From assembly GCA_964621395.1 (NCBI GenBank), contig CAZULS010000001.1:615-64614 (forward strand): a DNA stretch of 64,000 bases, in the 5' to 3' direction. This DNA comes from an uncultured Candidatus Saccharibacteria bacterium (GTDB taxonomy: Bacteria > Patescibacteriota > Minisyncoccia > Phycocordibacterales > JACNGX01). Numbering within the stretch: the first letter of the stretch is position 1; each line of letters begins with the position of its first letter. Positions 1,370-17,667 of the stretch are shown here, in pieces. Below the pieces are notes generated by a model that was given only the letters and a program-made list of their open reading frames with translations, made no database searches and was not told the origin of the DNA. A program made the translations under genes and the position numbers.

Positions 1370-3154
1370 TTAGAACTCTGAATAATCAATACTATCGGGA
1401 CCGTCTTCAATATCAACAATTGCCGAAAGATCAAGAGTACACTGCGTCGTCCTCACAAGTCCGTCACCGTTTCCCGTCACCGTTACATTGTAGAGACTTT
1501 GTGTACCGGGATTTCCTGTGATTGTTGCAGTAAGGTCAGCACCGGTTGTGTATTCTCCCGACGTCAGTGTCGTATCGCCATCGAATTCAAGAGTAATGCT
1601 ATCCGGAAGAGACGGATCCACGTCAATTGAGAGACTCACCGGATCAGAAAATCCATCCTGGGAAACGACACTGACGTTGAGCGTGTCTGAAAGATTCTCA
1701 GACCCTCCCACTTCAATTTGCAAACCACTCTTATCTTTAGCAAGAGAGAAATCAGGGATAATCGTTGCCAAAACGGTCACTTCTTCCACATCAGACGACA
1801 TGCCATGATTCCCTTCACCGGTATCGTGTATATCATCACAGCCCGGGTCGTCTAAGTCTGTCCATCCATCATTGTCGTTGTCGATACCGTCAGAACACGT
1901 CGTGCTCGTCGTTACTAGTGTCTGAGCTGTATCATTTCCTCCTGCACCATAGCATGTGAGTGTATAAGTTGTACTCACTTCGGGAGACACACTATAACCT
2001 CCGCTGGCTGTACCAACATTTCCATCATACAGCCCATCTGTTCCACTCAGAGTACATATATTCGCATCATCAGCGTTCCATATGAGATCTGTGGAAGCAC
2101 CTACAGTAATGCCCTCAGGATCAGCGGTGAAGAAAGTGATGTCAGCGGGTTGAGAAGGAATCGTTGCCCCCCCTGACACACTCACACAAGCAAGAGGTCT
2201 TGATTTATTACAAGGCGTATCACCAGAATATGCATTACACTTTAGTTCACCGCCTCCCATATCTTGTGGATTATATTCAGGATCTGTAAGCCCCCTATCA
2301 GTATTACACGTTATCTCCGCAGGAATCTCAGGATGATATCCAGGATCATGAAAATCCCACGTCATACCATATGAATTCCCTGTACTAAAACATTCAGCAT
2401 TTTGATTATTAATCCACACCCATGCCCTGTCAGTTGTTGAATTTGCATACAGAGCATCTTCGGAAGAGGCAAATACATCCCATCCTGACTCTTCATGAAA
2501 TTCAAGCCAGTCCCAATCGGAACCAAATTCACTTTCACAATAACTGTTCCCCACAGCAGTACTGGTTATCGCAGAACCGAGAAAATCTGTATTTGTGATA
2601 GCGTATTCATACAACTGACTCCCTCCAAGTGTCATCTCTACATCTATGCTCTGCTGCACACTTCCCCCGAGCCCTATACATTCAAGGATATATGTCTTTT
2701 CTTCAATAATTGGATCAGTTGTTTCTTGATGAGTTCCGTCGGTAGCGGTTTTTGATCCCGACCAATCACCGGAAGCATTACAGGAGGTAGCGTTGGCAAC
2801 CGTCCATTCAAGCGTCGTTGTGAGACCATTTTCCACGTTCGAAGGATTAGCTATAAAAGTCAATGATGGTGCTGCTTCACATGAATCACCGTCCCAGCCG
2901 TACCCTGTATCACACGCAAACTCACATTTAGTGGCCGTGTCGGGGTCGGCATGTATCCAGGGTAAGTCAGAAGGGAGATCCTCTTCTTCTTCGGCATCGT
3001 GTCGGGAAGCGTTGGTGGGAATTGATCCGGTACAGGAATAGCTTCCTCCTGCTCCAGCTTGCACATGTTGCACGAGGATACCACTTCCTATAAACACAAA
3101 AAGGAATGTGAGAGCGGCAAGTATACGGGATAGTGTAAAACGAAATGTGATCAT
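1370..3154 (-). CDS. Secreted Cys-rich protein with a TSP3/dockerin-like acidic motif (TCSDGIDNDNDGWTDLDDPGC)
   Basis: N-terminal hydrophobic signal/TM (LAALTFLFVFIGSGILV). Many Cys residues. One CxDGxDNDxDG...C motif. Acidic stretches. Confidence 0.6.
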   Translation of the reverse strand: MITFRFTLSRILAALTFLFVFIGSGILVQHVQAGAGGSYSCTGSIPTNASRHDAEEEEDLPSDLPWIHADPDTATKCEFACDTGYGWDGDSCEAAPSLTFIANPSNVENGLTTTLEWTVANATSCNASGDWSGSKTATDGTHQETTDPIIEEKTYILECIGLGGSVQQSIDVEMTLGGSQLYEYAITNTDFLGSAITSTAVGNSYCESEFGSDWDWLEFHEESGWDVFASSEDALYANSTTDRAWVWINNQNAECFSTGNSYGMTWDFHDPGYHPEIPAEITCNTDRGLTDPEYNPQDMGGGELKCNAYSGDTPCNKSRPLACVSVSGGATIPSQPADITFFTADPEGITVGASTDLIWNADDANICTLSGTDGLYDGNVGTASGGYSVSPEVSTTYTLTCYGAGGNDTAQTLVTTSTTCSDGIDNDNDGWTDLDDPGCDDIHDTGEGNHGMSSDVEEVTVLATIIPDFSLAKDKSGLQIEVGGSENLSDTLNVSVVSQDGFSDPVSLSIDVDPSLPDSITLEFDGDTTLTSGEYTTGADLTATITGNPGTQSLYNVTVTGNGDGLVRTTQCTLDLSAIVDIEDGPDSIDYSEF

Positions 3155-3165
3155 ATGATTCCTAT

Positions 3166-3822
3166 TTATACTAAAGTGCTCCTACATGAAGACTTCCTTG
3201 TGACAACCATCGCAACAATACCGATAAGTAAGACAAGGGCAACAACGATGTCCGAAGAGGTGTTCCTTTCTCCTTCGGATAGCCCCGGTTCATATATTGT
3301 CCAAAAACCCAGAGCATATCCGTCGGGTGCATAGATTGTGACACTCACCTCCGGATCGGGGCAGTCGGCGGTAACAGGAAGAGAAAGTATGGGACGTTTA
3401 TCGGTAATAGGAAAAGAAATAACTGTTTTCTCACTACAACGAACAGAGCTCGCTGCGTCGGTGAGATACGCATTGAGAGAAAGCTCGGGAACGGCTTCAG
3501 CATACTGAAGAACGTCCGGTACCATGGGTGAATCCCAAGAAACAGTGAGTTGCGCATTTTGTCCTTGTGTATATGATTCTGTATCAAGAGTTACTCCAAG
3601 TGAGGTGATAGAGATATGAGCATCTGCTTCCTCAAGAGACTTCTGTGCGAGATACAAACGAAGTTCTTCTTTTTGGGATGCGGAGAGGAACGAGATATCT
3701 CCTTTTTCCTCCACTTCATCGAGGAAGAGGGGTCTCTCAAGAGCATATACGGGTACACCAAAGATACTACCCATGAGAAGAGCCAAGAATATGCCTTGTG
3801 TGAGTGCATGTGCTGTGTTCAT
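3166..3822 (-). CDS. Hypothetical exported protein with a C-terminal transmembrane anchor
   Basis: Signal-like N-terminus (FLALLMGSIFGVPVYA) and C-terminal hydrophobic helix (IVVALVLLIGIVAMVV). Same strand, 12 nt from the upstream gene. Confidence 0.5.
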   Translation of the reverse strand: MNTAHALTQGIFLALLMGSIFGVPVYALERPLFLDEVEEKGDISFLSASQKEELRLYLAQKSLEEADAHISITSLGVTLDTESYTQGQNAQLTVSWDSPMVPDVLQYAEAVPELSLNAYLTDAASSVRCSEKTVISFPITDKRPILSLPVTADCPDPEVSVTIYAPDGYALGFWTIYEPGLSEGERNTSSDIVVALVLLIGIVAMVVTRKSSCRSTLV

Positions 3823-3843
3823 AATGTAAGAGATAGAATATTA

Positions 3844-4803
3844 TTATTCGCTTGTATCATATGCGTCACTGCAGCCCCCATCATGCCCGTCGATATTGCC
3901 ATCCCTATCATTATCAACACCATCGGAACACTCAGGTAAGGTACTATTATCCTGGTCCCAACATTCGAGATAGAAAGAATCCGAATGTGTCACCGTCACG
4001 CTCTGTAAACCCGCACCCGGTGTTATCCATCCGCCCCACCCTTCCGTCTCTGACGATGCCCAACAAGAATACGCACCAACCGTATCCCATGAGATATTCA
4101 CGGATTCGTTCACAGCCACCTCTGCACTCGAAGTACCGTTGACATACAGCGAGACTTCAGGTGCTCCTCCCTCAGTGGTGTCAAAGACGCTTTCGCATCT
4201 TCCGTCGTCAAGATCAATATCGTCATCGTCATCGTTATCGATGCCATCGGTACATTCCGAAGTCGCACTCACACCAGATTGTCCGAAATAAATAGCACCA
4301 AATTCATCGGACCATGCATATCCCGAAAGAGTCCCGTCGGGGTTTATCGTAACTCCATAGGGCGAGCTATCTTGTGCGGTGCCGGAAAGATGAATCCACC
4401 CCTCATTGCCCCCGGCATTCACTCCCGCATCGGCTATGCCCACAAAGCGCGCCCATCCTTTAATGGTGTCACCTTCTCGATATGCCGCACATGTTCCTGA
4501 GGGACATCCGGTCAAATATCCGGCCATGTTATCAAAGGCAATGTAACCCATGTTCTCACTATAGGCATATCCCGAAAGATCGCCATCGTCTACGGGAATA
4601 GACACACTGTAGGAAATAGCGCCGCCACCGGTGGTATTGCTCATGCTTATCCACCCAATACCGGTGTTTATCCCGGCACCATCGTCGCTCCCACCCCACA
4701 ACCACCCATAGACGGAGGTATCGGCAGAGAGAAAAGTAGCACCAAAGAAAAGTACGGAAAGCGTGAGAAGTGCTATCAAACGTGTCTGTGAAAAATATTT
4801 CAT
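3844..4803 (-). CDS. Secreted protein with two ECxDGxDNDxDG...C acidic motifs and internal GYAxS..G.IxF repeats
   Basis: Signal peptide MKYFSQTRLIALLTLSVLFFGATFLSA. Motifs ECTDGIDNDDDDDIDLDDGRC and ECSDGVDNDRDGNIDGHDGGC. Confidence 0.6.
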   Translation of the reverse strand: MKYFSQTRLIALLTLSVLFFGATFLSADTSVYGWLWGGSDDGAGINTGIGWISMSNTTGGGAISYSVSIPVDDGDLSGYAYSENMGYIAFDNMAGYLTGCPSGTCAAYREGDTIKGWARFVGIADAGVNAGGNEGWIHLSGTAQDSSPYGVTINPDGTLSGYAWSDEFGAIYFGQSGVSATSECTDGIDNDDDDDIDLDDGRCESVFDTTEGGAPEVSLYVNGTSSAEVAVNESVNISWDTVGAYSCWASSETEGWGGWITPGAGLQSVTVTHSDSFYLECWDQDNSTLPECSDGVDNDRDGNIDGHDGGCSDAYDTSE

Positions 4804-4813
4804 AAAGAATGTA

Positions 4814-5356
4814 TTATTCTTCTACCCTATATCGCAACGTAATACGATCAGCAAGGATATGATCACTATCACTGAGCGTACCGGTAGATACTGAGACCTC
4901 ATACCCCTCTTTGAGATCATTTTTGCTGAGTGTTCGCATTTCAAAAGGCTTCGGAGGAGTTCCTCGGTATTCGGGATCACTCTCTATTGCCTCGGTATAG
5001 CGACTCATTGCTTCAGCATAGCTTTCAGTGCTCGAAACGCGAACATATTCAATGATGGCCGTCTCAGGCGTGATGGTATAGATGAGTGTATCGGGTGGAT
5101 TGTCCACACCGAAACGATCAGCATCCACAGCGAGAGTCAGAGTATCCCCTGAGAGCTCCGTAATGACCCCGGTCACTTCACTGGCAGGTACGCTTTTAAG
5201 GAGCATGGTCATTTCCGCCACATACGCGCGACGTGCGTCACGATGAGCCATGAAAAGAAAGGCACCGCACACGATAAGGACAATAAGAAGTGCTGAGAGA
5301 AAAATATTTTTGTTAGCGGAAAGTGAGGATGACATACTAGAAAGGAGGTTGATCAA
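4814..5356 (-). CDS. Hypothetical membrane-anchored protein (single N-terminal TM)
   Basis: N-terminal TM (FLSALLIVLIVCGAFLFMA). Overlaps the next gene by 20 nt, suggesting an operon. Confidence 0.5.
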   Translation of the reverse strand: MINLLSSMSSSLSANKNIFLSALLIVLIVCGAFLFMAHRDARRAYVAEMTMLLKSVPASEVTGVITELSGDTLTLAVDADRFGVDNPPDTLIYTITPETAIIEYVRVSSTESYAEAMSRYTEAIESDPEYRGTPPKPFEMRTLSKNDLKEGYEVSVSTGTLSDSDHILADRITLRYRVEE

Positions 5357-6080
5357 ATACGCCCCAAGAAGAACCTTTGTTTGCGTAACACTGCGGCAAG
5401 CTAGAGGTCGACAAGGCTTTGCAGCACACAGTGGTGTTCTGAGCTTTGGTACATTCTAATTCGCCCCTCACTATACTACCAGGCCATGAAGAATTCGAAG
5501 GATACGACCACGGCGTAAAGCTTGCACTTTCTACGCTCCAAGACCACGGCGTAAAGCTTGCAGAACGGCAGGACACGCTGCCATTACTAGCCTGTTTACA
5601 GCATTCCAATGAACCATACCCTTCGGAATCACAAGACCATGAATTAAAACCGTCACCACTTCCCCCCAAATCACTCGCCCATTCGCCGGAAGAACGAATA
5701 TATACATCATCGAAATTTGCCGTGCCACCACCGTAGGTATTCCCCCCAATCGACACGCCGTTTACCCAATCATTGAATCCATTGATGTAGAGTATTTCGC
5801 TGTCTTCACTGTATCGTCCGCCGATACTGCGCTTGTCAGCACTTGCTCCGTACCCGGCAAGGTATTGACTGTCTGAGGCATTGATACTGATAGTACCTGT
5901 TTTTGTTTGCGCTTGTGCGCCTGTAGTAAGTGGCGCGCCAACATTGTCCGCCGGAGGAAACGATGACGGCTCCGTCCATGCAGCCACATACTGAAGTCCT
6001 GCAGCAAGAAGCACACCTCCGAGAGCTGCGCCCAGAAGTCGTGTGGTGGATATAAGCTGTGTGGAAAGTGAGGATGGCAT
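5337..6080 (-). CDS. Hypothetical exported/anchored protein with a tandem SASFTPWSW repeat and a CC pair
   Basis: Hydrophobic N-terminus (LLGAALGGVLLAAGL). Repeat SASFTPWSWSVESASFTPWSY. Last (upstream-most) gene of the minus-strand surface-protein cluster. Confidence 0.5.
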   Translation of the reverse strand: MPSSLSTQLISTTRLLGAALGGVLLAAGLQYVAAWTEPSSFPPADNVGAPLTTGAQAQTKTGTISINASDSQYLAGYGASADKRSIGGRYSEDSEILYINGFNDWVNGVSIGGNTYGGGTANFDDVYIRSSGEWASDLGGSGDGFNSWSCDSEGYGSLECCKQASNGSVSCRSASFTPWSWSVESASFTPWSYPSNSSWPGSIVRGELECTKAQNTTVCCKALSTSSLPQCYANKGSSWGVFDQPPF

Positions 6081-6282: not shown

Positions 6283-8214
6283 CTACTCCTCCACCGCCGC
6301 ATCATCGGCACTCACATTCGGGTCAGAAGAAAGATCAGTGTTGATATCACTATGGGACACAGAAATATTTGTATCGGTAAATGCGTCGTAGGCGCGCATG
6401 ACAATATCGGAGAACAGTACCGGACGAGAACCGACCTGAGTCACACTCGGAGTAAGCCCCACCTGAAACGCCGCTTCGGGGCCCGCCTCTTCCACGCCGG
6501 CACCAGCTTCAAGCGAGCCGATGGTCCAGGACACAGTACGGTTTGCGGCATTGTACGCAATATCGGCATACGACGGATTAACAGTACCTTTCCACTCCAC
6601 ACCTACGGGAAGTTTCCCTGAAACGGTTGTATTACGCAAATCGTTGGATGAGTTTACCGCCGAAAGCGCGATGGTGTATGTCGTTTCCTCTTCCGGTGTC
6701 GGCGGAATCGGTCCGATATTTGAAAACGGTCCTATGGAATGCAGCCCTCGGACGGCAATACGCATATCAGAAAAGACACGCACACTTCGCACAATAGCAT
6801 CCGAGTGTGACTCCATGACATCACCCTCCGCCTCGCGAATACCGCTTACATCAACTGAGAGGACGGTTTCGGGATTGCGAATACTCGTCCCCGAAACATC
6901 CACAAGCGCCTTTGAAGCGAAGTCAAATGAAAACATTCCCGATTCTCCCGGTTCAATTTCTTCAAGTCCCTTATACGTGTCGGTGCTCCAAAGAATCGTC
7001 CCTTTTTTTGAATCATAAAATCCATTTTTGGCATCAACACCATACTTATCAATCACATCACCGGAGAATGTGAGTTCGATCACCACATCGCGCAGCGGCA
7101 CGGTTGTGTTGTTGCGGTACGAAAGCGTCCCTCTCACCGCTTTCTCCGGGGCAATCACATAGCTGTCTTTCACCTCGCCTCCAAGCGCAAGCTGCATGCC
7201 AAGGAAGAGGTCACGCACGGCAATTGTCGTTTGGCTTTGATTATACATGACCGTCAGTTCTTCATGTTCGGCGGAATCAATCATGCCGACGCGCGCGCGA
7301 ATCGTTCGCTCATCATTATGCTCACCGCGAACAATGCCGCGAATGAGAATACTCGCATCACCGCCGGAAGGAATATCTCCCACATACCATACGGTATTTC
7401 CATACGACGGTTCGGGCTCGGCCGCAACCGGCTCAAAGCCAAAAGGGTACTCAAGAATCACCGCCACATCTTCAAGAAGCACATCAGTATTGGACACCAC
7501 CTCGATACCGATGTCAACCTCCTGTCCATTATTCACTTCATCGAGTGTCGAGAGTGTCATGCCGATTGGCGCCGAATCAATACGAATAGCATGCGACACC
7601 TCTTTGATAAACGTGGCACTCGAATTCGGCACACGATATTCCATGGCAATGCCAACACTCTTTTCGTCGTCCTCACTACCGAAGACCACACCTTGAATCA
7701 GCTCTTCTTTTGTCTCGCCCGGGGCAATCGAGCCAAGTGAACGATATTCCCGTGTGAGCTCTTCACCCGTCACATCATCAATGGCATGGAATCCGGGCGG
7801 ATACGTAATCACAATATTGGATCGTTCCAGCGTTTGGGAATTGTTATTGGTAATGGAAACCGTCAAATCCATATCATCGCCGCCGGAAATAGAAACCGGT
7901 CCTTCAAATGCAATATCCACACGATCTGAAGAAATTGTCACTCCCCCTCCGGAGAGAAGAAAAGTCGCAATACCAACGGCCGCGATAAAAAACACCACCG
8001 ACACACCAAAGACGACTTTCACAAGCCCTCCTTTTTTCTTGGAAGTGGGAAGTGCGGATTTTTCTCCCTCTTTCTTCCATTCCCGCGTAATGTCCCTGCC
8101 TCGCGAATAAAAAACGGGGCGAATCTCCCGCTCGCGTGAACGCCATTTCGGATCATACAGATTCTTTTTCACACGCTCAATACGTTCGGGCTTTTTCTGA
8201 GACTTCTTCTTCAT
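6283..8214 (-). CDS. Large membrane-anchored extracellular protein (644 aa), hypothetical
   Basis: Start trimmed to MKKKSQKKPE (ATG at 8214), because the upstream part of the ORF only translates the hairpin repeat (RIKCGMT). Basic N-terminus, then a TM (VVFGVSVVFFIAAVGIATFLL), then a long ectodomain with recurring YPPGF/YPFGFEP motifs. Confidence 0.6.
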   Translation of the reverse strand: MKKKSQKKPERIERVKKNLYDPKWRSREREIRPVFYSRGRDITREWKKEGEKSALPTSKKKGGLVKVVFGVSVVFFIAAVGIATFLLSGGGVTISSDRVDIAFEGPVSISGGDDMDLTVSITNNNSQTLERSNIVITYPPGFHAIDDVTGEELTREYRSLGSIAPGETKEELIQGVVFGSEDDEKSVGIAMEYRVPNSSATFIKEVSHAIRIDSAPIGMTLSTLDEVNNGQEVDIGIEVVSNTDVLLEDVAVILEYPFGFEPVAAEPEPSYGNTVWYVGDIPSGGDASILIRGIVRGEHNDERTIRARVGMIDSAEHEELTVMYNQSQTTIAVRDLFLGMQLALGGEVKDSYVIAPEKAVRGTLSYRNNTTVPLRDVVIELTFSGDVIDKYGVDAKNGFYDSKKGTILWSTDTYKGLEEIEPGESGMFSFDFASKALVDVSGTSIRNPETVLSVDVSGIREAEGDVMESHSDAIVRSVRVFSDMRIAVRGLHSIGPFSNIGPIPPTPEEETTYTIALSAVNSSNDLRNTTVSGKLPVGVEWKGTVNPSYADIAYNAANRTVSWTIGSLEAGAGVEEAGPEAAFQVGLTPSVTQVGSRPVLFSDIVMRAYDAFTDTNISVSHSDINTDLSSDPNVSADDAAVEE

Positions 8215-8304
8215 ACTATAATGATAGCAGACTGGTACGCTGGTTTCTAGTATCTGGTAGCCGGTTGCGCGCGCTATCGCGCGCTTCCACACAAACAAAA
8301 CCTT

Positions 8305-8383
8305 TGTCATCCCGCACTTGATGCGGGATCTAAAACGTAACGAAACCACTGACCCAAGATTCCGCATCAAGTGCGGAATGACA
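8305..8383. repeat. Two copies of the ~26-nt stem-loop element family (tgtcatcccgcaCTTGAtgcgggatc and gattccgcaTCAAGtgcggaatgaca)
   Basis: 8-bp stem with a CTTGA loop, flanked by TGTCAT...GATC. Other copies at 9272-9296, 9330-9355, 17562-17587, 17621-17646, 20575-20601, 20635-20660, 22627-22653, 25302-25327, 26674-26698, 35373-35398, 43440-43466, 51820-51846, 53007-53032, 54417-54442, 54478-54503. Confidence 0.8.
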
Positions 8384-8574: not shown

Positions 8575-9123
8575 CTAAAGATGGCTTTCGGCAAGAGATG
8601 CCTGAACAGCTTCTTCTAAATGTGAAATTTCTTTTCCAGGAAGTACCCCTGTGGCATACTCCACAGCAACGCTTTCTTCTGCATATCCGAGTGCTGAAAG
8701 AATGGCATACTTTCCTGCAAGAAGCACATGCCTCTTTTCTTCCGCGCTTTCCGAATAAGAGATCAAGTCCATACTCATTGTGGCAACGACAAAAAGAAGT
8801 TCATTCCCCTCTTCACCTTTGATGAGCCTGCGGAGAAATGAGGAAAGTTCGGCGCAGTGCGCACAGCTCTCCAGTGCACACGCTTCCTTTCCTTTCGAAA
8901 AAATACCGGTAAGCGTCCATACATTCTTCCCGCGCACAATATCAATTGTCACATGTCGATATTCCGAAAGATGATATTTCATTTTTGAACCAATAAGACG
9001 AGAACCGCGAGCAACAACGCCGATAAGTCCAAAATCGGGTGTGAGTATATGAAGGAAACGATCGGCCTCTCCCGTGCCAACACTTGCGAGAATGATACCT
9101 TCAGTGTGGTAGATGTGATACAT
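8575..9123 (-). CDS. recO: DNA repair protein RecO (short form)
   Basis: N-terminal OB-fold signature TEGIILASVGTGEADRFLHILTPDFGLIGVVARGSRL. Cys cluster CALESCAHC. Confidence 0.6.
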   Translation of the reverse strand: MYHIYHTEGIILASVGTGEADRFLHILTPDFGLIGVVARGSRLIGSKMKYHLSEYRHVTIDIVRGKNVWTLTGIFSKGKEACALESCAHCAELSSFLRRLIKGEEGNELLFVVATMSMDLISYSESAEEKRHVLLAGKYAILSALGYAEESVAVEYATGVLPGKEISHLEEAVQASLAESHL

Positions 9124-9440: not shown

Positions 9441-12400
9441 TTACCTCAAAGCGAAGCGCACCGTCTCATTCTCACCAAGTACCGCTTCCGTCGCGTCTTC
9501 AATTTCTTTCTCAAACACGATATTTCTGAGCGATGCTGTTTTCTGAATCATATCTTTGTATTCAGCGATGAGCGACTCAGCGATTGAATCAGCGGAAACA
9601 GCGAGTGTTACCACATCATCCGGCGATAGCCCCTTTGCTTTACGTGCATCTTGAATTGCACGCAAGAGTTCACGCACTTCCCCTTCGCGACGCAGATCAT
9701 CCGTGAGTTCTAAATCGAGACCTGTTCCATTCTCCGTCTTCGATTCGTCCACCACAATTTTCTTCACATTCACTTCATCTTTGATAAGTGCGGCATATCG
9801 CTCGTCGGAGACATACTCGCCCTTCTCGGCAACAAAAAGTGTCGAAAGCGGCTGGCGCACCTTCACCCCTTCGCGCTTGCGCACCAGAAGAGCGGAAGAC
9901 ACCACAGCGCGCACCTTTTCCATCGCGACAATCACCTCCTTTTCTTTCTTCCCCTCTTTCATCTCAATCCAGCTCTCCAAATGCACACTCTCTTTCTTTC
10001 CACCTGTGCGTCCGTACACACGCTCAGAAACAAACGGCGTAAAGGGTGCAAGGAGTATTGCCGTGGCACGAAGCACTTCTCCAAGTACTGCACGCGCCTC
10101 GCGTGCGTCGTTCCCCTCACCTTTCATACGCTCTCTGCTTCGACGCACATACCACGTGGAAAGATCATCCAGAAAGCCAACAAACGGTCTCGTCGCACGG
10201 TCGAGTTCATATGCATCCAAAGCTCGCGTCACATCACGCGACACCTCTCCAAGTCGCGCGAGAATCCATTGATCAAGCACGTTCTTGGGCGCGCCGCCTC
10301 CCGTGGCGCGTCCTTCTTGTCCTTCTTGCCCGGCGGTCCCTCGACCGCTTAGGGCCTCTCCCTTTGGGACGACAAGTTCATAGAAGGCCACCACATTCTC
10401 CAGTCGCGCAATAATTTTTTTATACACCTCATCAACACCCTTCTCGGAAAAGCGAAGTTCTTCACCGCGCACCGCCGGCGAATTCAAGAGATAGAAGCGA
10501 ATGGCATCGGCGCCATAGCGATCCGCCAGATTCATTGGATCAGGATAATTTTTCAGCTTCTTACTCATCTTCTTCCCATCTTCCGCCAAAATCAAACCGT
10601 TCACAATCACGTGGCGGTACGGCGACTCATCAAAAAGCCCGACGCCAAGCATAAGTAAGGTATAAAACCAACCGCGTGTTTGATCCAGTCCTTCAGCAAT
10701 AAAGTCTGCCGGAAAATATTTCTTGAATGATTCTTTCCCTTTCGCCGGATATCCAAATTGTGCAAACGGCATCGCACCGGATTCAAACCAGCAGTCAAAC
10801 ACATCGGGGATACGTGTGTAGGCAGTACCGTCTTTTTCAATTTCCACCTCATCAATATACGGACGATGCACATCAAGCTCGTACTCGGCATTGTGCGGCA
10901 AGGGCACAAAATCCAGCTTTCGATATGTGCCGGTAGATATAAAATCACCTTCTTGCTGTGCATATATCTCAACGATTTCATCTACCGTTCTCCCTTCTGC
11001 ACCTTCAAAGAGCATGCGCGTTGCACCATCATGCGTGACAAAAAGAACGTTTTTCCCCTCATATGTTTCCTCGCATCCATACAACACCTCACTGACTCGA
11101 CGCTTCACATCGACATTACTCTCCCCTTTCGGACGCGGCTTTGTCATCCATTCATGAGCGTTTGTAAAATGCTCATCATCAACACTAACCGGCTTCCCTT
11201 CAAAATCACCAAAGTCATGCTCGCGAATTCCTTCCTCAATAACAATTGCGTCTTCCGGAAATCCGAGACCTTCGGCAACAAGCTTAGCAGTCTCACGCGT
11301 ACGCACCAAGGGCGATGCGATAATCACATCCGGCATGAAGCCTTCTTTCTTCATTCTTTCCACCGCCTCTGTAATTTCTTCTTTTCCTTTCTCTGTTACA
11401 TGATGTTCGTTCTCCGGAAGACCGGAATAAATTCCTGCCACATTACTCTCCGCTTCACCATGACGCATCACTACATAGGTATTGCCGGCAGTCTTTGTAT
11501 ACTTTTTCAATGTTGCCACACTATCAACCACCAATCGCTCACCCCTCTCATTCTCCCACACAGGCAAGGGAGCCCCCCAGAAACGCTGACGAGAAAAATT
11601 CCAGTCCGGCGCACCTTCAAGGAGATTTGCAAAACGCGCCGAGCCAATCTTCTCCGGCACCCAGCCAATCTTTTTATTTTTCTTCAGCGCACGGTCCTTG
11701 AGCTTTTGAATATCAATAAACCACGCCTCTGTCGCATAATTCAGAAGTGGTGTATCACAACGCCAACAATGCGGATACGGGTGTTCATACTTTTCTTTCG
11801 CAAAAAAGGCGTTGTGTTCTTGCAGATACTTGATCACTGCAATATCGGTTGCAAGACGCTCTTTCTCATCATCACTTCTTGGCTTCACCGCCATACCGGA
11901 AAGCACCTCCACCGTATCCTTCACGATGCCCGTATCATCCACATGCTGCACAAACGGCAGATTATGTTTCTTCCCAAGTGTAAGATCGTCTTCACCAAAC
12001 GCCGGCGCAATGTGCACAATACCGGTTCCGTCTTCGGTTGTCACAAAATCACCCGCATAGATTTTCCATCCGTTTTCACGGTGTTCAAGATTCTCGTCGT
12101 CAGCGTAGTATGGGAAGAGTGGCTTATATGCTTTACCCACAAGCTCTCCTCCCTTCATCTCTCCCTCGACATCATATTCCTTTATACCTGCCTTCTCGAA
12201 CACATCTCCCACCCTCTCTTTGGCAACGATATATCGCGCACCACTCGCAAGGACAATCACATACTCAATATCCTCTCCCACAGCCAAAGCCACATTGCCC
12301 GGCAGTGTCCACGGCGTGGTAGTCCACGCGAGAACGTAAGTTCTCGTGTGCCCCGCGGAGCCTTGGCGGAGTAGGGCATCTCCATCTTCCCCACCATCAT

Positions 12401-13142
12401 CAACCAATTCAAACTTCGCAATCACCGACAAGTCCTTCACGTCCTTGTACCCTTGCGACACCTCATTATTCGAAAGCGTTGTCTCACATCGCGGGCAGAT
12501 ATGCATAGAACGATATCCTTTCGTGATGAGTCCCTTTTTATCGAGCTCAGAAAACGCCCACCATACCGATTCGGTGTATGAGGTATCCATCGTTTTATAC
12601 GCATGATCCATGTCGATAAATCGTCCCATGCGCGGCACGGTTCGCTTCCATTCCTCGTCGTAGCGCATCACACTTCCGCGCGCGCGTTCATTGAATTTCC
12701 CGATGCCATATTTCTCAACATCTTTTTTGTTTTCCAATTCGAGCTCTTCTTCAATCAACACCTCCACCGGCAATCCATGACAATCCCATCCCCATTGCCT
12801 GCGGACATGATTTCCCTGCATTGTTTTGTATCGCGGAATTGCATCCTTCATCGTCCCGGCCAAGAGATGACCATAGTGCGGTGTACCGGTCGCAAATGGA
12901 GGTCCATCATAAAACACAAACTCCTTGCCGCCCTCTGTCGCCTCAAGCGTGCGCTCAAAAATACGTTGCTGTCTCCAGAGCGCAAGTGTTTCTTCTTCTT
13001 TACGCGCAACGTCGGAGAGGGTGCGGTTCCCCTCCATGGCCTTGGCGACGGAGGGTGTCTCCTTTGTTGTATCTGCGTGAGAGGACATCTCATCTCCTTT
13101 TCCACAACCGGGAGAACATGTTTTTGGCACAGACTGACTCAT
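9441..13142 (-). CDS. ileS: Isoleucine--tRNA ligase carrying an inserted histidine-phosphatase (PGAM-type) domain
   Basis: HYGH (PHYGHLLAG) and KMSKS (KMSKKL) motifs. The C-terminal tRNA-binding region is present. About 190 aa between PDWNFSRQRFWGAPLPVWE and RIPDVFDCWFESG carry RHGEAESN...RTRETA...EHDFGDFEG...VTHDGATR. Confidence 0.9.
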   Translation of the reverse strand: MSQSVPKTCSPGCGKGDEMSSHADTTKETPSVAKAMEGNRTLSDVARKEEETLALWRQQRIFERTLEATEGGKEFVFYDGPPFATGTPHYGHLLAGTMKDAIPRYKTMQGNHVRRQWGWDCHGLPVEVLIEEELELENKKDVEKYGIGKFNERARGSVMRYDEEWKRTVPRMGRFIDMDHAYKTMDTSYTESVWWAFSELDKKGLITKGYRSMHICPRCETTLSNNEVSQGYKDVKDLSVIAKFELVDDGGEDGDALLRQGSAGHTRTYVLAWTTTPWTLPGNVALAVGEDIEYVIVLASGARYIVAKERVGDVFEKAGIKEYDVEGEMKGGELVGKAYKPLFPYYADDENLEHRENGWKIYAGDFVTTEDGTGIVHIAPAFGEDDLTLGKKHNLPFVQHVDDTGIVKDTVEVLSGMAVKPRSDDEKERLATDIAVIKYLQEHNAFFAKEKYEHPYPHCWRCDTPLLNYATEAWFIDIQKLKDRALKKNKKIGWVPEKIGSARFANLLEGAPDWNFSRQRFWGAPLPVWENERGERLVVDSVATLKKYTKTAGNTYVVMRHGEAESNVAGIYSGLPENEHHVTEKGKEEITEAVERMKKEGFMPDVIIASPLVRTRETAKLVAEGLGFPEDAIVIEEGIREHDFGDFEGKPVSVDDEHFTNAHEWMTKPRPKGESNVDVKRRVSEVLYGCEETYEGKNVLFVTHDGATRMLFEGAEGRTVDEIVEIYAQQEGDFISTGTYRKLDFVPLPHNAEYELDVHRPYIDEVEIEKDGTAYTRIPDVFDCWFESGAMPFAQFGYPAKGKESFKKYFPADFIAEGLDQTRGWFYTLLMLGVGLFDESPYRHVIVNGLILAEDGKKMSKKLKNYPDPMNLADRYGADAIRFYLLNSPAVRGEELRFSEKGVDEVYKKIIARLENVVAFYELVVPKGEALSGRGTAGQEGQEGRATGGGAPKNVLDQWILARLGEVSRDVTRALDAYELDRATRPFVGFLDDLSTWYVRRSRERMKGEGNDAREARAVLGEVLRATAILLAPFTPFVSERVYGRTGGKKESVHLESWIEMKEGKKEKEVIVAMEKVRAVVSSALLVRKREGVKVRQPLSTLFVAEKGEYVSDERYAALIKDEVNVKKIVVDESKTENGTGLDLELTDDLRREGEVRELLRAIQDARKAKGLSPDDVVTLAVSADSIAESLIAEYKDMIQKTASLRNIVFEKEIEDATEAVLGENETVRFALR

Positions 13143-13490: not shown

Positions 13491-14243
13491 ATGACACAGT
13501 CAAACGCAACAAACACCGTTGAAGAATACAGAGACATGATTCTCCGGCAGGTAGAAAAAGTAGCTGGTGGCTCCAAAGATGATCTCCTTTCCTTTTATTA
13601 TGAAAAATATGATCACCGTACACACGATGAAAAAAATAAATTCCGTGTCGCACTATCGACCGTCATTGAAGATGTATTCAGCTCAGATCCGCCTATCAAC
13701 CCTGTCGTTTGGACAAAAGAACTCATCGACCTTGTTGCTCTGACACTTGCAGACGAAGCGCTAACAAAAGTCCTTGGGCACTCAAAGAGAATGCTTGGTA
13801 AAAAGAAAGGTGGCTACGAAGAAAGACGTCAGAGAACGTTCACCTTGCTTTCCGACACAATCCAAAATATATTTCTCGACCAGAACGATCTGTTCAGACC
13901 GGAGTGGATCACAAAATTTGCAGAAAGCACATTCTTCAATCCCGAAAAAGATGCTATCCATATTCTTCTTATGGTCGCACGGACCATACCTGACGAATTC
14001 GAGACGTTTGTCGTCTCTATGCGCAAGCATGTAAACACCCTTGTTGTCCGTACAGACAGGGATAAGGTACGTGTTTATGCATACGCACAAGAAATCGTCG
14101 ACAAAATCGGAAAGAGACGGGCAGTACTTTCTCTCGGTATTGAAGATTACAGACTGAAAGAAATTCTCTTCCTGGAAGAAGATTCTCCTTTCAGAATAAT
14201 CGCAAAAGAGGACATGCACAAACTCCTCGAACCCCCGAAATGA
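13491..14243 (+). CDS. Hypothetical protein (250 aa)
   Basis: Long ORF with a balanced composition, followed by two rho-independent-type hairpins (14232-14255, 14264-14297). No recognisable family motif. Confidence 0.5.
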   Translation: MTQSNATNTVEEYRDMILRQVEKVAGGSKDDLLSFYYEKYDHRTHDEKNKFRVALSTVIEDVFSSDPPINPVVWTKELIDLVALTLADEALTKVLGHSKRMLGKKKGGYEERRQRTFTLLSDTIQNIFLDQNDLFRPEWITKFAESTFFNPEKDAIHILLMVARTIPDEFETFVVSMRKHVNTLVVRTDRDKVRVYAYAQEIVDKIGKRRAVLSLGIEDYRLKEILFLEEDSPFRIIAKEDMHKLLEPPK

Positions 14244-14432: not shown

Positions 14433-16121
14433 TTACATTCTCTCAGGCACGGAAATCCCGAGAAGCGACAATCCCGATTCAAGCGTTGAGGCGACGGCTT
14501 TCGCGAGCGCCACGCGATACGGCGCTTCCTCCATCTCGGAGACAATCGGCGTGTGCGCGTAGTATGCATTAAATGCCTGCGCAATATCGGTGATTGCCGT
14601 CACAATCCTATGTGGCATACGCGCTCTTGCGCTCTCGCGCACATCTTCCGGGAAGCGCGCAATGAGTCGTTCGAGTTCACCAATATCATCACCCTCTTTC
14701 GTAATATCAGCAACGATACCCACTTCTTTTGCTTTCTCAACCACCGAGCGGGCACGCACCGCCGTATACTGCACATACGGTCCTGAAGCCCCTTCAAAGG
14801 AAAGCCACTTCTCAGCATCGTAGACAATATTCTTCCCTGTCTCTCCGCGCAGCACTCCATATTTGAGTGCGGAAACAGCAACCATATTCGCAATACTCCC
14901 ATCATCGTCCACACCATTTTCTTTGAGCTTCCCGGCGGCGCGCTCGGTCACTTCATTAAGAAGCGATTCGCCCGTCACCACATTCCCCTTGCGCGACGAC
15001 ATCTTCCCTTCCGCAAGCTGCATCATACCGTGTGAGATATGTTCGAAGCGACCGGCCGTCTCAGGCTTCATCTTTGCAAGCGCGGCAAACACCACCTTGA
15101 AATATTCTTTCTGCTCTTCAGCGGTAATCGTGTAAAACGTTTTCGCATTGGGAAATGCCTCGAGTTTCGAAATCGCCAATCCAATATCCTTCGCCTCATA
15201 TGTCGGCAATCCTTTTCCGCCGATAAATACACGAGTATGGAGCCCGCTTTCTTCACCTCTGTACACGACAGCACCTTCCGATTCTTCAAACACATTTCCC
15301 ACATGCTCTAAAACGGCATCACGTCCTTTCTTCCATGTCTCACTTTCAAAAACATACGTATCAAAAGCTGTGCCGAGTTTTTGATAGAGCTCTTCAAAAT
15401 GCTCAAGTGTTGTCTTTCTTCCCGCATCATAGAGAGTGTTGAGCTCCTCATCATCGCGCTCATACACATGTGTGTTGAGTGTGTCAATCGCGTGCTTCGC
15501 TTCTCCCCCTTCTTCATATTTTTCATTCCCATATACATACGCTTTGCCAATGGCGAGAACATCGTCCGGCGACACATCGAGCTCCTTCATGCCATACAAT
15601 GCTTTGGCAACATGCAAACCCACATCCCCTTGATAATTCATGCGCACCACATTATCACCTTCCGCTTCCAGGAGTCGACACAGCGACTCCCCAATCGCAT
15701 TACTCATCAAGTGACCAATATGAAAAAGCTTAAACGGATTCGGATCGGTATATTCCACGACAACCGTCTCCCCCGTCTTTTCATCCGCATACCCATATTT
15801 CTCTTCCGTTGTCTGGACCAAGCGCGAGAGAATCACGCTTTTGGAAAGTGTAATATTAATGAATCCGGGACCGGCCACAGACGCTCCCGAAACCATACCC
15901 TCACTATCGGCCTCAGAAATATGCTTCTCAATGCTTTCGGCAAGCTCACGCGGATTCTTTCCCGTCTCCTTTGCACTCACAAGCGCAATATTGCTCGCAT
16001 AATCCCCGTGCGTCATATCCGCCGGCACCTCCACATGCACATCTTCTGGGCGCACCAAAACACCCGCTTTTTCAGCAGAAAGAGCAATCACTGATTGAAG
16101 ATATTCGGGAATGTAAAACAT
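14433..16121 (-). CDS. argS: Arginine--tRNA ligase
   Basis: HIGH motif (FHIGHLMSNAIGESL), N-terminal Arg_tRNA_synt_N-like region, C-terminal DALR-type anticodon-binding region. 562 aa. Confidence 0.95.
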   Translation of the reverse strand: MFYIPEYLQSVIALSAEKAGVLVRPEDVHVEVPADMTHGDYASNIALVSAKETGKNPRELAESIEKHISEADSEGMVSGASVAGPGFINITLSKSVILSRLVQTTEEKYGYADEKTGETVVVEYTDPNPFKLFHIGHLMSNAIGESLCRLLEAEGDNVVRMNYQGDVGLHVAKALYGMKELDVSPDDVLAIGKAYVYGNEKYEEGGEAKHAIDTLNTHVYERDDEELNTLYDAGRKTTLEHFEELYQKLGTAFDTYVFESETWKKGRDAVLEHVGNVFEESEGAVVYRGEESGLHTRVFIGGKGLPTYEAKDIGLAISKLEAFPNAKTFYTITAEEQKEYFKVVFAALAKMKPETAGRFEHISHGMMQLAEGKMSSRKGNVVTGESLLNEVTERAAGKLKENGVDDDGSIANMVAVSALKYGVLRGETGKNIVYDAEKWLSFEGASGPYVQYTAVRARSVVEKAKEVGIVADITKEGDDIGELERLIARFPEDVRESARARMPHRIVTAITDIAQAFNAYYAHTPIVSEMEEAPYRVALAKAVASTLESGLSLLGISVPERM

Positions 16122-16860: not shown

Positions 16861-17496
16861 TCAATTCGCAATCATTCTCTTCACTGCTTCAAGCGCCGCT
16901 TCCCTGGCTTGTATTTCATTAAGAGCAACGGTATCGATAATGACATAGTGATCTTCGGGCATAGACGCGAGCTCTTTGTGATACGCCTCGCGAACGCGAG
17001 TGTGGAATGCAACACTCTCCGTATCAAAGCGAGTTTTGGTGGTACCATGTTCCCCCACGACTCGCGAAAGACCGATTTCCGGTTCTACATCAAGAAAGAT
17101 ATAGTATGGCTCCGCATACGGCGCCACAATACGTCCGTAGAGCTCACGATAGAGCACTTCCAACTCCGGACGTTCCCTTCCCACAATCTGATACGCATAG
17201 GTGGAAAGTGCGAAACGGTCACACATCACATGCTTGCCGGAGGCAAGTGCCGGCTCAATCACTCTTTTCATATGCTCAGCCCGATCAGCGAAAAAGAGAA
17301 GGAGTTCTGTTTCGGGAGTCATTTCTTTTTCCAGAAGAAGCGCACGAATACTGCCTCCGATATCAGTACCGCCCGGTTCACGAGTGTACACAAACCCTTC
17401 ATCACCAAGATTTTTGCGCACATAGTCGAAACACGTCCCTTTCCCGGCTCCATCCCCTCCTTCAAAGACGATGAGTTTTCCGCGATTTGTGTTCAT
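16861..17496 (-). CDS. tmk: Thymidylate kinase
   Basis: P-loop LIVFEGGDGAGKGT and a DRF...STYAYQ lid region. Start trimmed to MNTNRGK (ATG 17496) because the upstream ORF extension runs into repeat elements. Confidence 0.8.
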   Translation of the reverse strand: MNTNRGKLIVFEGGDGAGKGTCFDYVRKNLGDEGFVYTREPGGTDIGGSIRALLLEKEMTPETELLLFFADRAEHMKRVIEPALASGKHVMCDRFALSTYAYQIVGRERPELEVLYRELYGRIVAPYAEPYYIFLDVEPEIGLSRVVGEHGTTKTRFDTESVAFHTRVREAYHKELASMPEDHYVIIDTVALNEIQAREAALEAVKRMIAN

Positions 17497-17667
17497 AGTT
17501 TCTCTATGATACCACATGGGGCGTGGAGCATGAATCACGGAGCACGACAAAACCCCCATACTGTCATTCCCAACTTGATTGGGAATCTTATTAAATAACC
17601 TCTACAGACAACATACCGAAGATTCCCGCTCAGGGGCGGGAATGACAATGCTGGAGTTTTATACACA

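Follow-up and report, generated by a model that had tools for sequence, protein, structure and literature searches.

Few enzymes are as conserved and as well studied as the aminoacyl-tRNA synthetases, and domain accretion is a known theme in this group. Examples are the connective peptide 1 (CP1) editing domain, the domains appended to eukaryotic enzymes and, for isoleucyl-tRNA synthetase (IleRS), the NCBIfam subtype ileS_w_GNAT (NF040702), in which a GNAT enzyme has been added. In the present study an IleRS gene (ileS) of an uncultured Candidatus Saccharibacteria bacterium was analyzed, located on contig CAZULS010000001.1 in a stretch of 64,000 nucleotides which is called the window in the following. 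The closest solved structure by sequence is IleRS2 of Priestia megaterium (8c8u; phmmer, E=2e-202). With this enzyme and with the IleRS of Thermus thermophilus (1ile) the window protein shares the HIGH and KMSKS core, CP1, the CP2-CP3 linker, the anticodon-binding domain and the DUF5915 C-terminus. In contrast to 8c8u, about 200 additional residues are present where the P. megaterium enzyme has two. The principle is that of the examples above, an extra domain in a class-I synthetase, but the added domain is a histidine phosphatase at the CP3 site instead of the GNAT enzyme of NF040702.

The synthetase and its inserted phosphatase module

In the alignment with 8c8u (phmmer), residues 47-548 and 750-1199 of the window IleRS correspond to residues 12-477 and 480-918 of the chain, and the junction 548|750 falls on the two-residue gap 477|480. 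From this alignment, the AlphaFold2 (AF2) model and Foldseek the insert comprises residues 549-749 (10896-11498, minus strand). A sequence-only reading of this DNA had placed it at 10908-11480, equal to residues 555-745, which was correct in position and slightly too narrow. The insertion point that it named was confirmed by alignment to type-2 IleRS and is flanked exactly by the WGxPxPVW and DxFDCWFESG blocks, with the junctions ...FWGAPLPVWE-(His_Phos)-RIPDVFDCWFESG... in the window. All motifs quoted at that time, namely PDWNFSRQRFWGAPLPVWE, VVMRHGEAESN, SPLVRTRETA, EHDFGDFEG, FVTHDGATR, RIPDVFDCWFESG and HYGH, were found in the translation. Within the CP3 subdomain the insert is situated at the tip. 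CP3 was described for residues 473-534 of the Candida and 459-526 of the yeast enzyme; its topology varies among IleRSs, and a zinc site in CP3 is known for Thermus only (PMC7191050).

The expected match of the segment to His_Phos_1 (PF00300) was obtained. The core of the family covers residues 557-723 (10974-11474, minus strand; E=1.3e-31) and reached 110.3 bits with the whole protein. With the segment alone 115.4 bits were measured (E=3.3e-33), compared to a cut-off of 21.7. The match is far beyond chance. The GC content of the insert (0.45-0.48) is the same as that of its flanks. Modelled alone with an alignment of 57 sequences, the insert gave a predicted local distance difference test score (pLDDT) of 96.2 and a predicted template modelling score (pTM) of 0.92. 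Foldseek against the PDB returned histidine-phosphatase structures with probability 1.00, template modelling (TM) scores of 0.7-0.8 and 20-27% identity, among them the phosphoglycerate mutase (PGM) of S. pombe (1fzt), PspA (4ij5), PhoE (1h2e), the mycobacterial hydrolase 6s2q, CobC (6e4b) and GpgP (4qih). Further PDB matches to pentatricopeptide-repeat proteins (5orq, 4pjq and others) were rejected as chance. They come from one amphipathic helix-strand segment, EEITEAVERMKKEGFMPDVIIASPLV (residues 588-613; 11304-11381, minus strand), which resembles the designed pentatricopeptide-repeat consensus and whose match is multiplied by the number of repeats.

The RHG motif (R560, H561 and G562; 11457-11465, minus strand) contains the predicted phospho-accepting nucleophile H561, and H704 (11031-11033, minus strand) is the predicted second catalytic histidine. 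R560, H561, N567, T583, G586, S610, R614, T618, E641, E674, R682 and H704 were invariant in alignments of 40 and of 57 sequences. From established knowledge of the family, we take R560, H561, N567, R614, E641 and H704 to fulfil the catalytic roles of branch-1 histidine phosphatases. The catalytic residues are invariant although the inserts are only 33-70% identical to that of the window, which indicates that catalysis has been retained.

None of the tested NCBIfam equivalogs reached its cut-off with the insert. For cofactor-dependent PGM (dPGM), TIGR01258 gave 36.7 bits (cut-off 81.7) and the other equivalogs 22-70 bits (cut-offs 225-421), the archaeal dPGM model being the one with 70 against 225. 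The scores for the alpha-ribazole phosphatase CobC (TIGR03162) were 85.0 versus 162.9, for the phosphoserine phosphatase PspA (NF045917) 57.6 versus 350, for SixA (TIGR00249) 36.1 versus 74.5 and for PRK07238 (RNase H/CobC) 97 versus 326. The best PDB match by sequence (E=5e-13) as well as by fold (TM 0.79) was the S. pombe PGM 1fzt, with which the phosphohistidine core is shared. In contrast, the positions typical for the mutase are changed: RHGESEWN to RHGEAESN with loss of its Ser and Trp, FTGW to YSGL, WRRS to WMTK and HGN to HDG. At the last of these motifs THEYP is the consensus of the family, which thus also lacks HGN. Since the residues of the cofactor-dependent mutases are missing, the insert is most likely a phosphomonoesterase of the small PhoE/CobC/PspA-like type and not a dPGM. 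Thus, the designation 'PGAM-type' in the sequence-only reading holds at the level of the superfamily, but not for the mutase itself. The fold, the length of about 200 amino acids and the catalytic set RHG...R...E...H are shared with PhoE/YhfR (1h2e), CobC (6e4b, 3hjg), PspA (4ij5), GpgP Rv2419c (4qih) and the acid-phosphatase half of Rv2228c. The identity to these small branch-1 phosphatases is only 20-27%, and in contrast to them the window domain is embedded in the catalytic domain of another enzyme.

The host enzyme is encoded by one unbroken open reading frame (ORF; 9441-13142, minus strand) of 1233 amino acids, as had been read from the sequence, and represents a full type-2 IleRS with a non-conserved N-terminal extension of about 44 residues. 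An exact-protein lookup gave no record for the form with 1233 amino acids. A protein of 1215 amino acids starting at M19 (P0001) is 100% identical and is present on two contigs of another collection. TIGR00392 (ileS) matched with 856.6 bits (cut-off 621.4), and this match as well as that of Pfam tRNA-synt_1 was split into two stretches, in the former case with the insert in between. Eukaryotic cytoplasmic IleRS (7d5c, 9wqs, 9w01) were also among the best PDB matches, and the type-1 enzymes 1ffy and 8c9e were weaker (about 1e-84 to 1e-88). By these similarities the enzyme is assigned to the eukaryote-like and mupirocin-tolerant type 2 and not to type 1. The cut-offs of ileS_w_GNAT (326 versus 1999) and of the mupirocin-resistance enzymes MupA/MupB (NF000257/8; 637 and 678 versus 1900) were not reached, and no second ileS was found in the 64-kb window.

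The HIGH signature reads HYGH (residues 89-92; 12867-12878, minus strand), with H89, Y90, G91 and H92 invariant in 40 sequences. For the second signature KMSKS had been noted, but the translation reads KMSKK (residues 858-862; 10557-10571, minus strand); K858, S860 and K861 are invariant in the 40 sequences and M859 nearly so. The CP1 editing domain covers approximately residues 231-460 (11763-12452, minus strand) with the threonine-rich editing motif WTTTPWTLPGN at residues 273-283 and GTGIVHIAPAFGEDD; the isolated IleRS editing domain 1wk8 matches residues 231-458. It is followed by the CP2-CP3 linker APDWNFSRQRFWG (residues 511-523; 11574-11612, minus strand). Its yeast equivalent, 453-ARDWNVSRNRYWG-465, lines the pocket for tRNA-CCA and reveromycin, and CP3 comes directly after it (PMC7955072). 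In the window the N-terminal part of CP3 (residues 524-548; 11499-11573, minus strand) has lost the CxxC and the C-terminal part, HNAEYELDVHRPYIDEVEIEKDGTAYTRI (residues 750-778; 10809-10895, minus strand), the CxC of the zinc knuckle. All four cysteines are gone (VWENERGER ... EKDGTAY), a further difference from 8c8u and 1ile; in most relatives CxxC...CxCG is kept on both sides of the phosphatase. Towards the C-terminus a low-complexity loop rich in G and Q, GRGTAGQEGQEGRATGGGA (residues 931-949; 10296-10352, minus strand), is followed by Anticodon_1 (residues 957-1100; 9843-10274, minus strand) and the DUF5915 domain typical of type-2 IleRS (residues 1138-1226; 9465-9731, minus strand), both detected with Pfam. 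The AF2 model of residues 45-1233 gave a pLDDT of 85.3 and a pTM of 0.77, with values of about 90 in the insert region. Low confidence was restricted to the KMSKS loop and the G/Q-rich loop, for which the model shows disorder with pLDDT values under 50 (model residues 887-905). With synthetic and editing sites intact, the gene product is probably the working IleRS of the organism.

Spread and descent of the insertion

A search with the whole protein (NCBI, JGI, ENA, Logan) detected PF00300 together with the IleRS domains in all of the best 120 homologues. These proteins are 49-100% identical to the window IleRS and, one entry of 1060 amino acids apart, 1147-1263 amino acids long; the named ones belong to Candidatus Yonathbacteria, Lloydbacteria, Pacebacteria/Paceibacterota, Minisyncoccia and Parcubacteria. 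With an insert-deleted query the phosphatase was still present in 118 of the 120 nearest IleRS. Scanning GTDB with one genome for each species revealed at least 481 relatives. All of the best 80 among them span both junctions and the insert, including a closed Nomurabacteria chromosome of 994,774 bp; the names in this group are Paceibacteria, Yonath-, Taylor-, Nomura-, Lloyd- and Zambryskibacteria. The sequence-only reading had left open whether related genomes share the insertion and whether the assembly is chimeric. The former is the case for 120/120 nearest homologues, and the latter is excluded by the common architecture of the best 120 homologues and the best 80 GTDB loci, the closed 995-kb chromosome included.

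The pairwise identity was 0.455 for the insert and 0.642 for the core, with a correlation of r=0.86 between them. The identity of the insert thus follows that of the core, as predicted for vertical co-inheritance. The spacing of the flanking motifs was 250-259 residues in 124/137 insert-bearing proteins, and this narrow range indicates a constrained, non-floppy arrangement. Two close relatives, P0404 and P0416, have no insert. They possess a normal zinc-knuckle CP3 of 58 residues (VWxCxxC...GSxxELK...LHRPYID...CxCGG), which by comparison is the ancestral state. In Paceibacteria (Parcubacteria) the fusion is old, has been passed on vertically and is maintained by purifying selection. We regard it as highly probable that an active phosphatase embedded in a working IleRS was ancestral to the Paceibacteria. 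One insert-bearing IleRS locus (L004, QYPD01000003.1, 8.5-kb contig) is filed under a metagenome-assembled genome labelled Spirochaetia, and many others carry the generic third-party label 'uncultured Candidatus Saccharibacteria'. Both labels are probably artefacts of binning or labelling and do not indicate a true spread beyond Paceibacteria.

An exhaustive HMMER search of 1.84 billion cluster representatives with the insert alone yielded 605 matches at E<=1e-10. Class-Ia synthetase flanks were found in 97 of the best 150, and 49 of the 150 were proteins of at most 260 amino acids without a flank. At least one of these short representatives, P0121, clusters with a member of 723 amino acids. 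It is a gene fragment, and the free-standing class is therefore unreliable. An origin of the insert from free-standing phosphatases was considered, and members of this class mix with the IleRS inserts in the neighbour-joining tree.

The same domain family was detected in valyl-tRNA synthetases (ValRS) from the candidate phyla radiation (CPR). P0126 consists of the N-terminal part of a ValRS followed by four His_Phos_1 stretches. Among 120 CPR ValRS relatives retrieved with this protein, His_Phos was present in 70, with one copy in 57, two in 11 and three or more in 2. The named sources of such enzymes are Gracilibacteria and Peregrinibacteria; the ValRS named Nomurabacteria, Peribacteria and Magasanikbacteria among the 120 were without His_Phos. 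The junctions read ...WWGHRIPVWY-(His_Phos)-QDEDTLDTWFSS..., in a loop homologous to the CP3 site of IleRS, where ValRS without insert have approximately 20 residues. Compared with the CPR ValRS P0279, P0285, P0298, P0345 and P0126, the window IleRS thus has the same domain family, the homologous loop and the kept catalytic residues in common, but host enzyme, lineages and phosphatase clade differ, and the ValRS carry one to four copies. In the neighbour-joining analysis the ValRS inserts formed a clade of their own (44/45), and the mean distance between Ile and Val inserts was 0.836, compared to 0.68-0.72 inside each group. The separate clade and the larger distance suggest either an independent capture or a very old split.

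Two or more copies of His_Phos occurred in 13 of the best 150 representatives of the HMMER search. In P0143, P0167 and P0230 one copy is located in CP3 and a second one between the equivalents of window residues 920 and 956. According to collinear high-scoring segment pairs (HSPs) this second site is the position of the disordered G/Q loop of the window, which may represent a remnant or else another permissive site. In P0208 (1394 amino acids, NCBI, 26-kb contig) CP3 is uninterrupted and His_Phos is found at the second site (920-956). The protein has in addition an alpha/beta serine hydrolase (PF06821) at a third site, corresponding approximately to window residues 800-822; a location of this hydrolase in CP3 was ruled out by collinear HSPs. 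The complete copies of multi-copy relatives keep the core R, H, N, R, E, H with a single exception (N to A), and one complete copy has Q at the non-core positions 674 and 682. The equivalents of R560 and H561 are present in every copy. Other domains were observed in the CPR ValRS P0302, P0337, P0311 and P0305, namely PF04480 (DUF559, endonuclease-like), PF00216 (HU, DNA-binding) and PF16326. The variety of such domains may mean that class-Ia synthetases of CPR genomes take up inserted domains generally.

Possible functions of the phosphatase

With regard to mechanism and ALTERNATIVES, the gene product is bifunctional: an intact IleRS and a folded histidine phosphatase whose catalytic residues are conserved are joined in one polypeptide, and this state is fixed in a deep clade. 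As best explanation overall we consider a type-2 IleRS with a CP3 phosphomonoesterase tied to class-Ia charging, for which the arguments on both sides are about evenly balanced. The narrower claim, that the phosphatase activity is functionally coupled to tRNA charging and is no unrelated passenger, is made tentatively. Two paralogous class-Ia enzymes have the same domain family in the same loop, and active copies were amplified inside the gene; both observations suggest that the phosphatase benefits from the synthetase context. Phosphorylated tRNA 3' ends are documented, as toxSAS toxins pyrophosphorylate tRNA 3' ends and thereby block charging (10.1101/2021.04.30.441581; PMC11559606). CP3 begins beside the CCA pocket, and together these points make a phosphatase for nucleotides or tRNA ends a reasonable working model.

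According to the standard mechanism of the family, H561 would take the phosphate as phospho-histidine intermediate, the phosphate would be held by R560, R614, H704 and N567, and E641 would serve as proton donor. At the synthetase, the phosphatase would dephosphorylate a nucleotide or a tRNA 3' end carrying a phosphate, and the substrate would thereby stay chargeable. A further-reaching proposal is that the CPR gained a class-Ia CP3 phosphatase at least twice, because charging includes a new phosphate-removal step; this seems unlikely. For example, a 3'-phosphate or pyrophosphate, as added by toxSAS-type toxins, would be stripped in cis from the tRNA CCA end, or alternatively a phosphorylated nucleotide blocking the active site would be cleared. 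If this proposal is true, the synthetase would be a combined repair-and-charge enzyme.

Several points weigh against a coupling to charging. We know of no histidine phosphatase with an RNA end as substrate, and no equivalog threshold of NCBIfam was reached with the insert. The other points speak at the same time for the main rival explanation, a passenger. In this case a PhoE/CobC/PspA-like small-molecule housekeeping phosphatase would reside in a permissive surface loop of a constitutive essential protein and would be kept in a very small genome because the cell needs a phosphatase, with no link to aminoacylation. The nearest characterised relatives, solved or curated, all act on small metabolites. 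CP3 differs in topology among IleRSs and tolerates change, so the use of the same loop twice could mean a permissive site and no function. The core works without the insert in P0404 and P0416; hence, the insert is not needed for IleRS function. In P0208 the phosphatase is found only at the second site, which can host it instead, and this argues against a precise geometry near the CCA pocket. Unrelated domains were likewise accreted by the class-Ia synthetases of the CPR, namely DUF559 and HU by ValRS and the serine hydrolase by IleRS. For the passenger it also counts that no other His_Phos gene was found in the 64-kb window. On the other hand, two paralogous synthetases of different CPR classes have both fixed the same family in the homologous loop, and as separate clades, which is unlikely if insertion is random. 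The copy number rises up to 2-4 within the synthetase and not as free genes. Fusions for co-expression are usually terminal, but all observed cases are internal insertions, and almost all members of a deep clade possess the trait. We regard the passenger explanation as possible, but rather doubtful.

PGM is absent in several clades of Parcubacteria according to Jaffe et al. (2020; PMC7304191), and the insert might be this missing enzyme, interconverting 3- and 2-phosphoglycerate. With the manual threshold of that CPR metabolic survey for TIGR01258 (67.1 bits; PMC7304191, supplement file 3) the insert with its 36.7 bits would be overlooked. The best PDB match, by sequence and fold, is the small monomeric PGM of S. 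pombe (1fzt), and the archaeal short dPGM model matches at 70 bits. However, the dPGM residues binding the second phosphate and the carboxylate are not conserved; in place of HGN the window has HDG and the family consensus HEY, and every dPGM model stays far under its cut-off. A PGM would also leave the insertions in ValRS unexplained, for example in Gracilibacteria, of which at least one genome is without glycolysis. This explanation is quite improbable. A protein phosphatase acting on the synthetase or a partner, for example on a phosphoserine in or near the KMSKS loop to reverse a shut-off by a kinase, appears still less probable. SixA, PGAM5 and Sts-1 are branch-1 histidine phosphatases acting on proteins, and toxin kinases of the HipA family phosphorylate class-I synthetases. 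The position in cis would suit self-repair, and SixA gives a weak match of 36 bits, which is under its cut-off (36.1 versus 74.5). Self-repair hardly explains tandem arrays with as many as four copies, and evidence for such kinases or phosphosites was not encountered in this analysis. Finally, it is extremely improbable that the segment is an assembly chimera, or that the domain is dead and acts just as spacer or ligand sensor. The unbroken frame, the even base composition and the same architecture in hundreds of independent assemblies speak against the chimera, which was rejected, and the invariance of the catalytic residues across the divergent inserts speaks against a dead domain.

Gene neighbourhood, annotation and significance

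The neighbours of ileS on the minus strand are a DUF11-repeat protein of 695 amino acids, probably located at the cell surface (6283-8370), a RecO-like protein (8575-9123), arginyl-tRNA synthetase (14433-16121) and thymidylate kinase (16861-17559). Several ORFs nearby (1370-6080, 13491-14243) gave no Pfam match. A stop-free ORF of 538 amino acids (10758-12374, plus strand) runs antisense to ileS. Most likely, it results from the purine richness of the coding strand (GC skew of the plus strand about -0.3) and is no gene. With ARAGORN eight tRNA genes were found between 25135 and 56420 (His, two Leu, Val, two Arg, Ser and Lys), and no tRNA-Ile was detected in the window.

The sequence-only reading knew of no aminoacyl-tRNA synthetase with such a phosphatase module. 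In agreement with this, full-text literature searches retrieved no publication on a synthetase of this architecture, the papers that did come up being on other subjects as judged from title and abstract, and a large survey of aminoacyl-tRNA synthetases makes no mention of phosphatases. Hundreds of the sequences are public nonetheless. Those with the insert are labelled 'class I tRNA ligase family protein' at NCBI and 'isoleucyl-tRNA synthetase' at JGI, and the downgrade at NCBI is attributed to the insert. The annotation of PGM can be affected, too. With TIGR01258 the multi-copy proteins P0161 and P0126 reached 92.8 and 99.3 bits over the whole protein. Being above 67.1 bits, such proteins could be counted as PGM, and single-copy proteins would not. 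Hence, metabolic reconstructions of the CPR can err in both directions.

A predicted second active site in the catalytic body of IleRS, present throughout a class of bacteria, is absent from textbooks and from the searched literature. If the phosphatase is a passenger, it would be a clear natural example of a domain insertion into an essential enzyme, which would show how functions are packed in ultra-small genomes and could guide the engineering of insertions into CP3. If it is coupled to charging, this would point to a so far unknown step in the largest uncultured radiation of bacteria, by which tRNA or nucleotides are quality-controlled or repaired.

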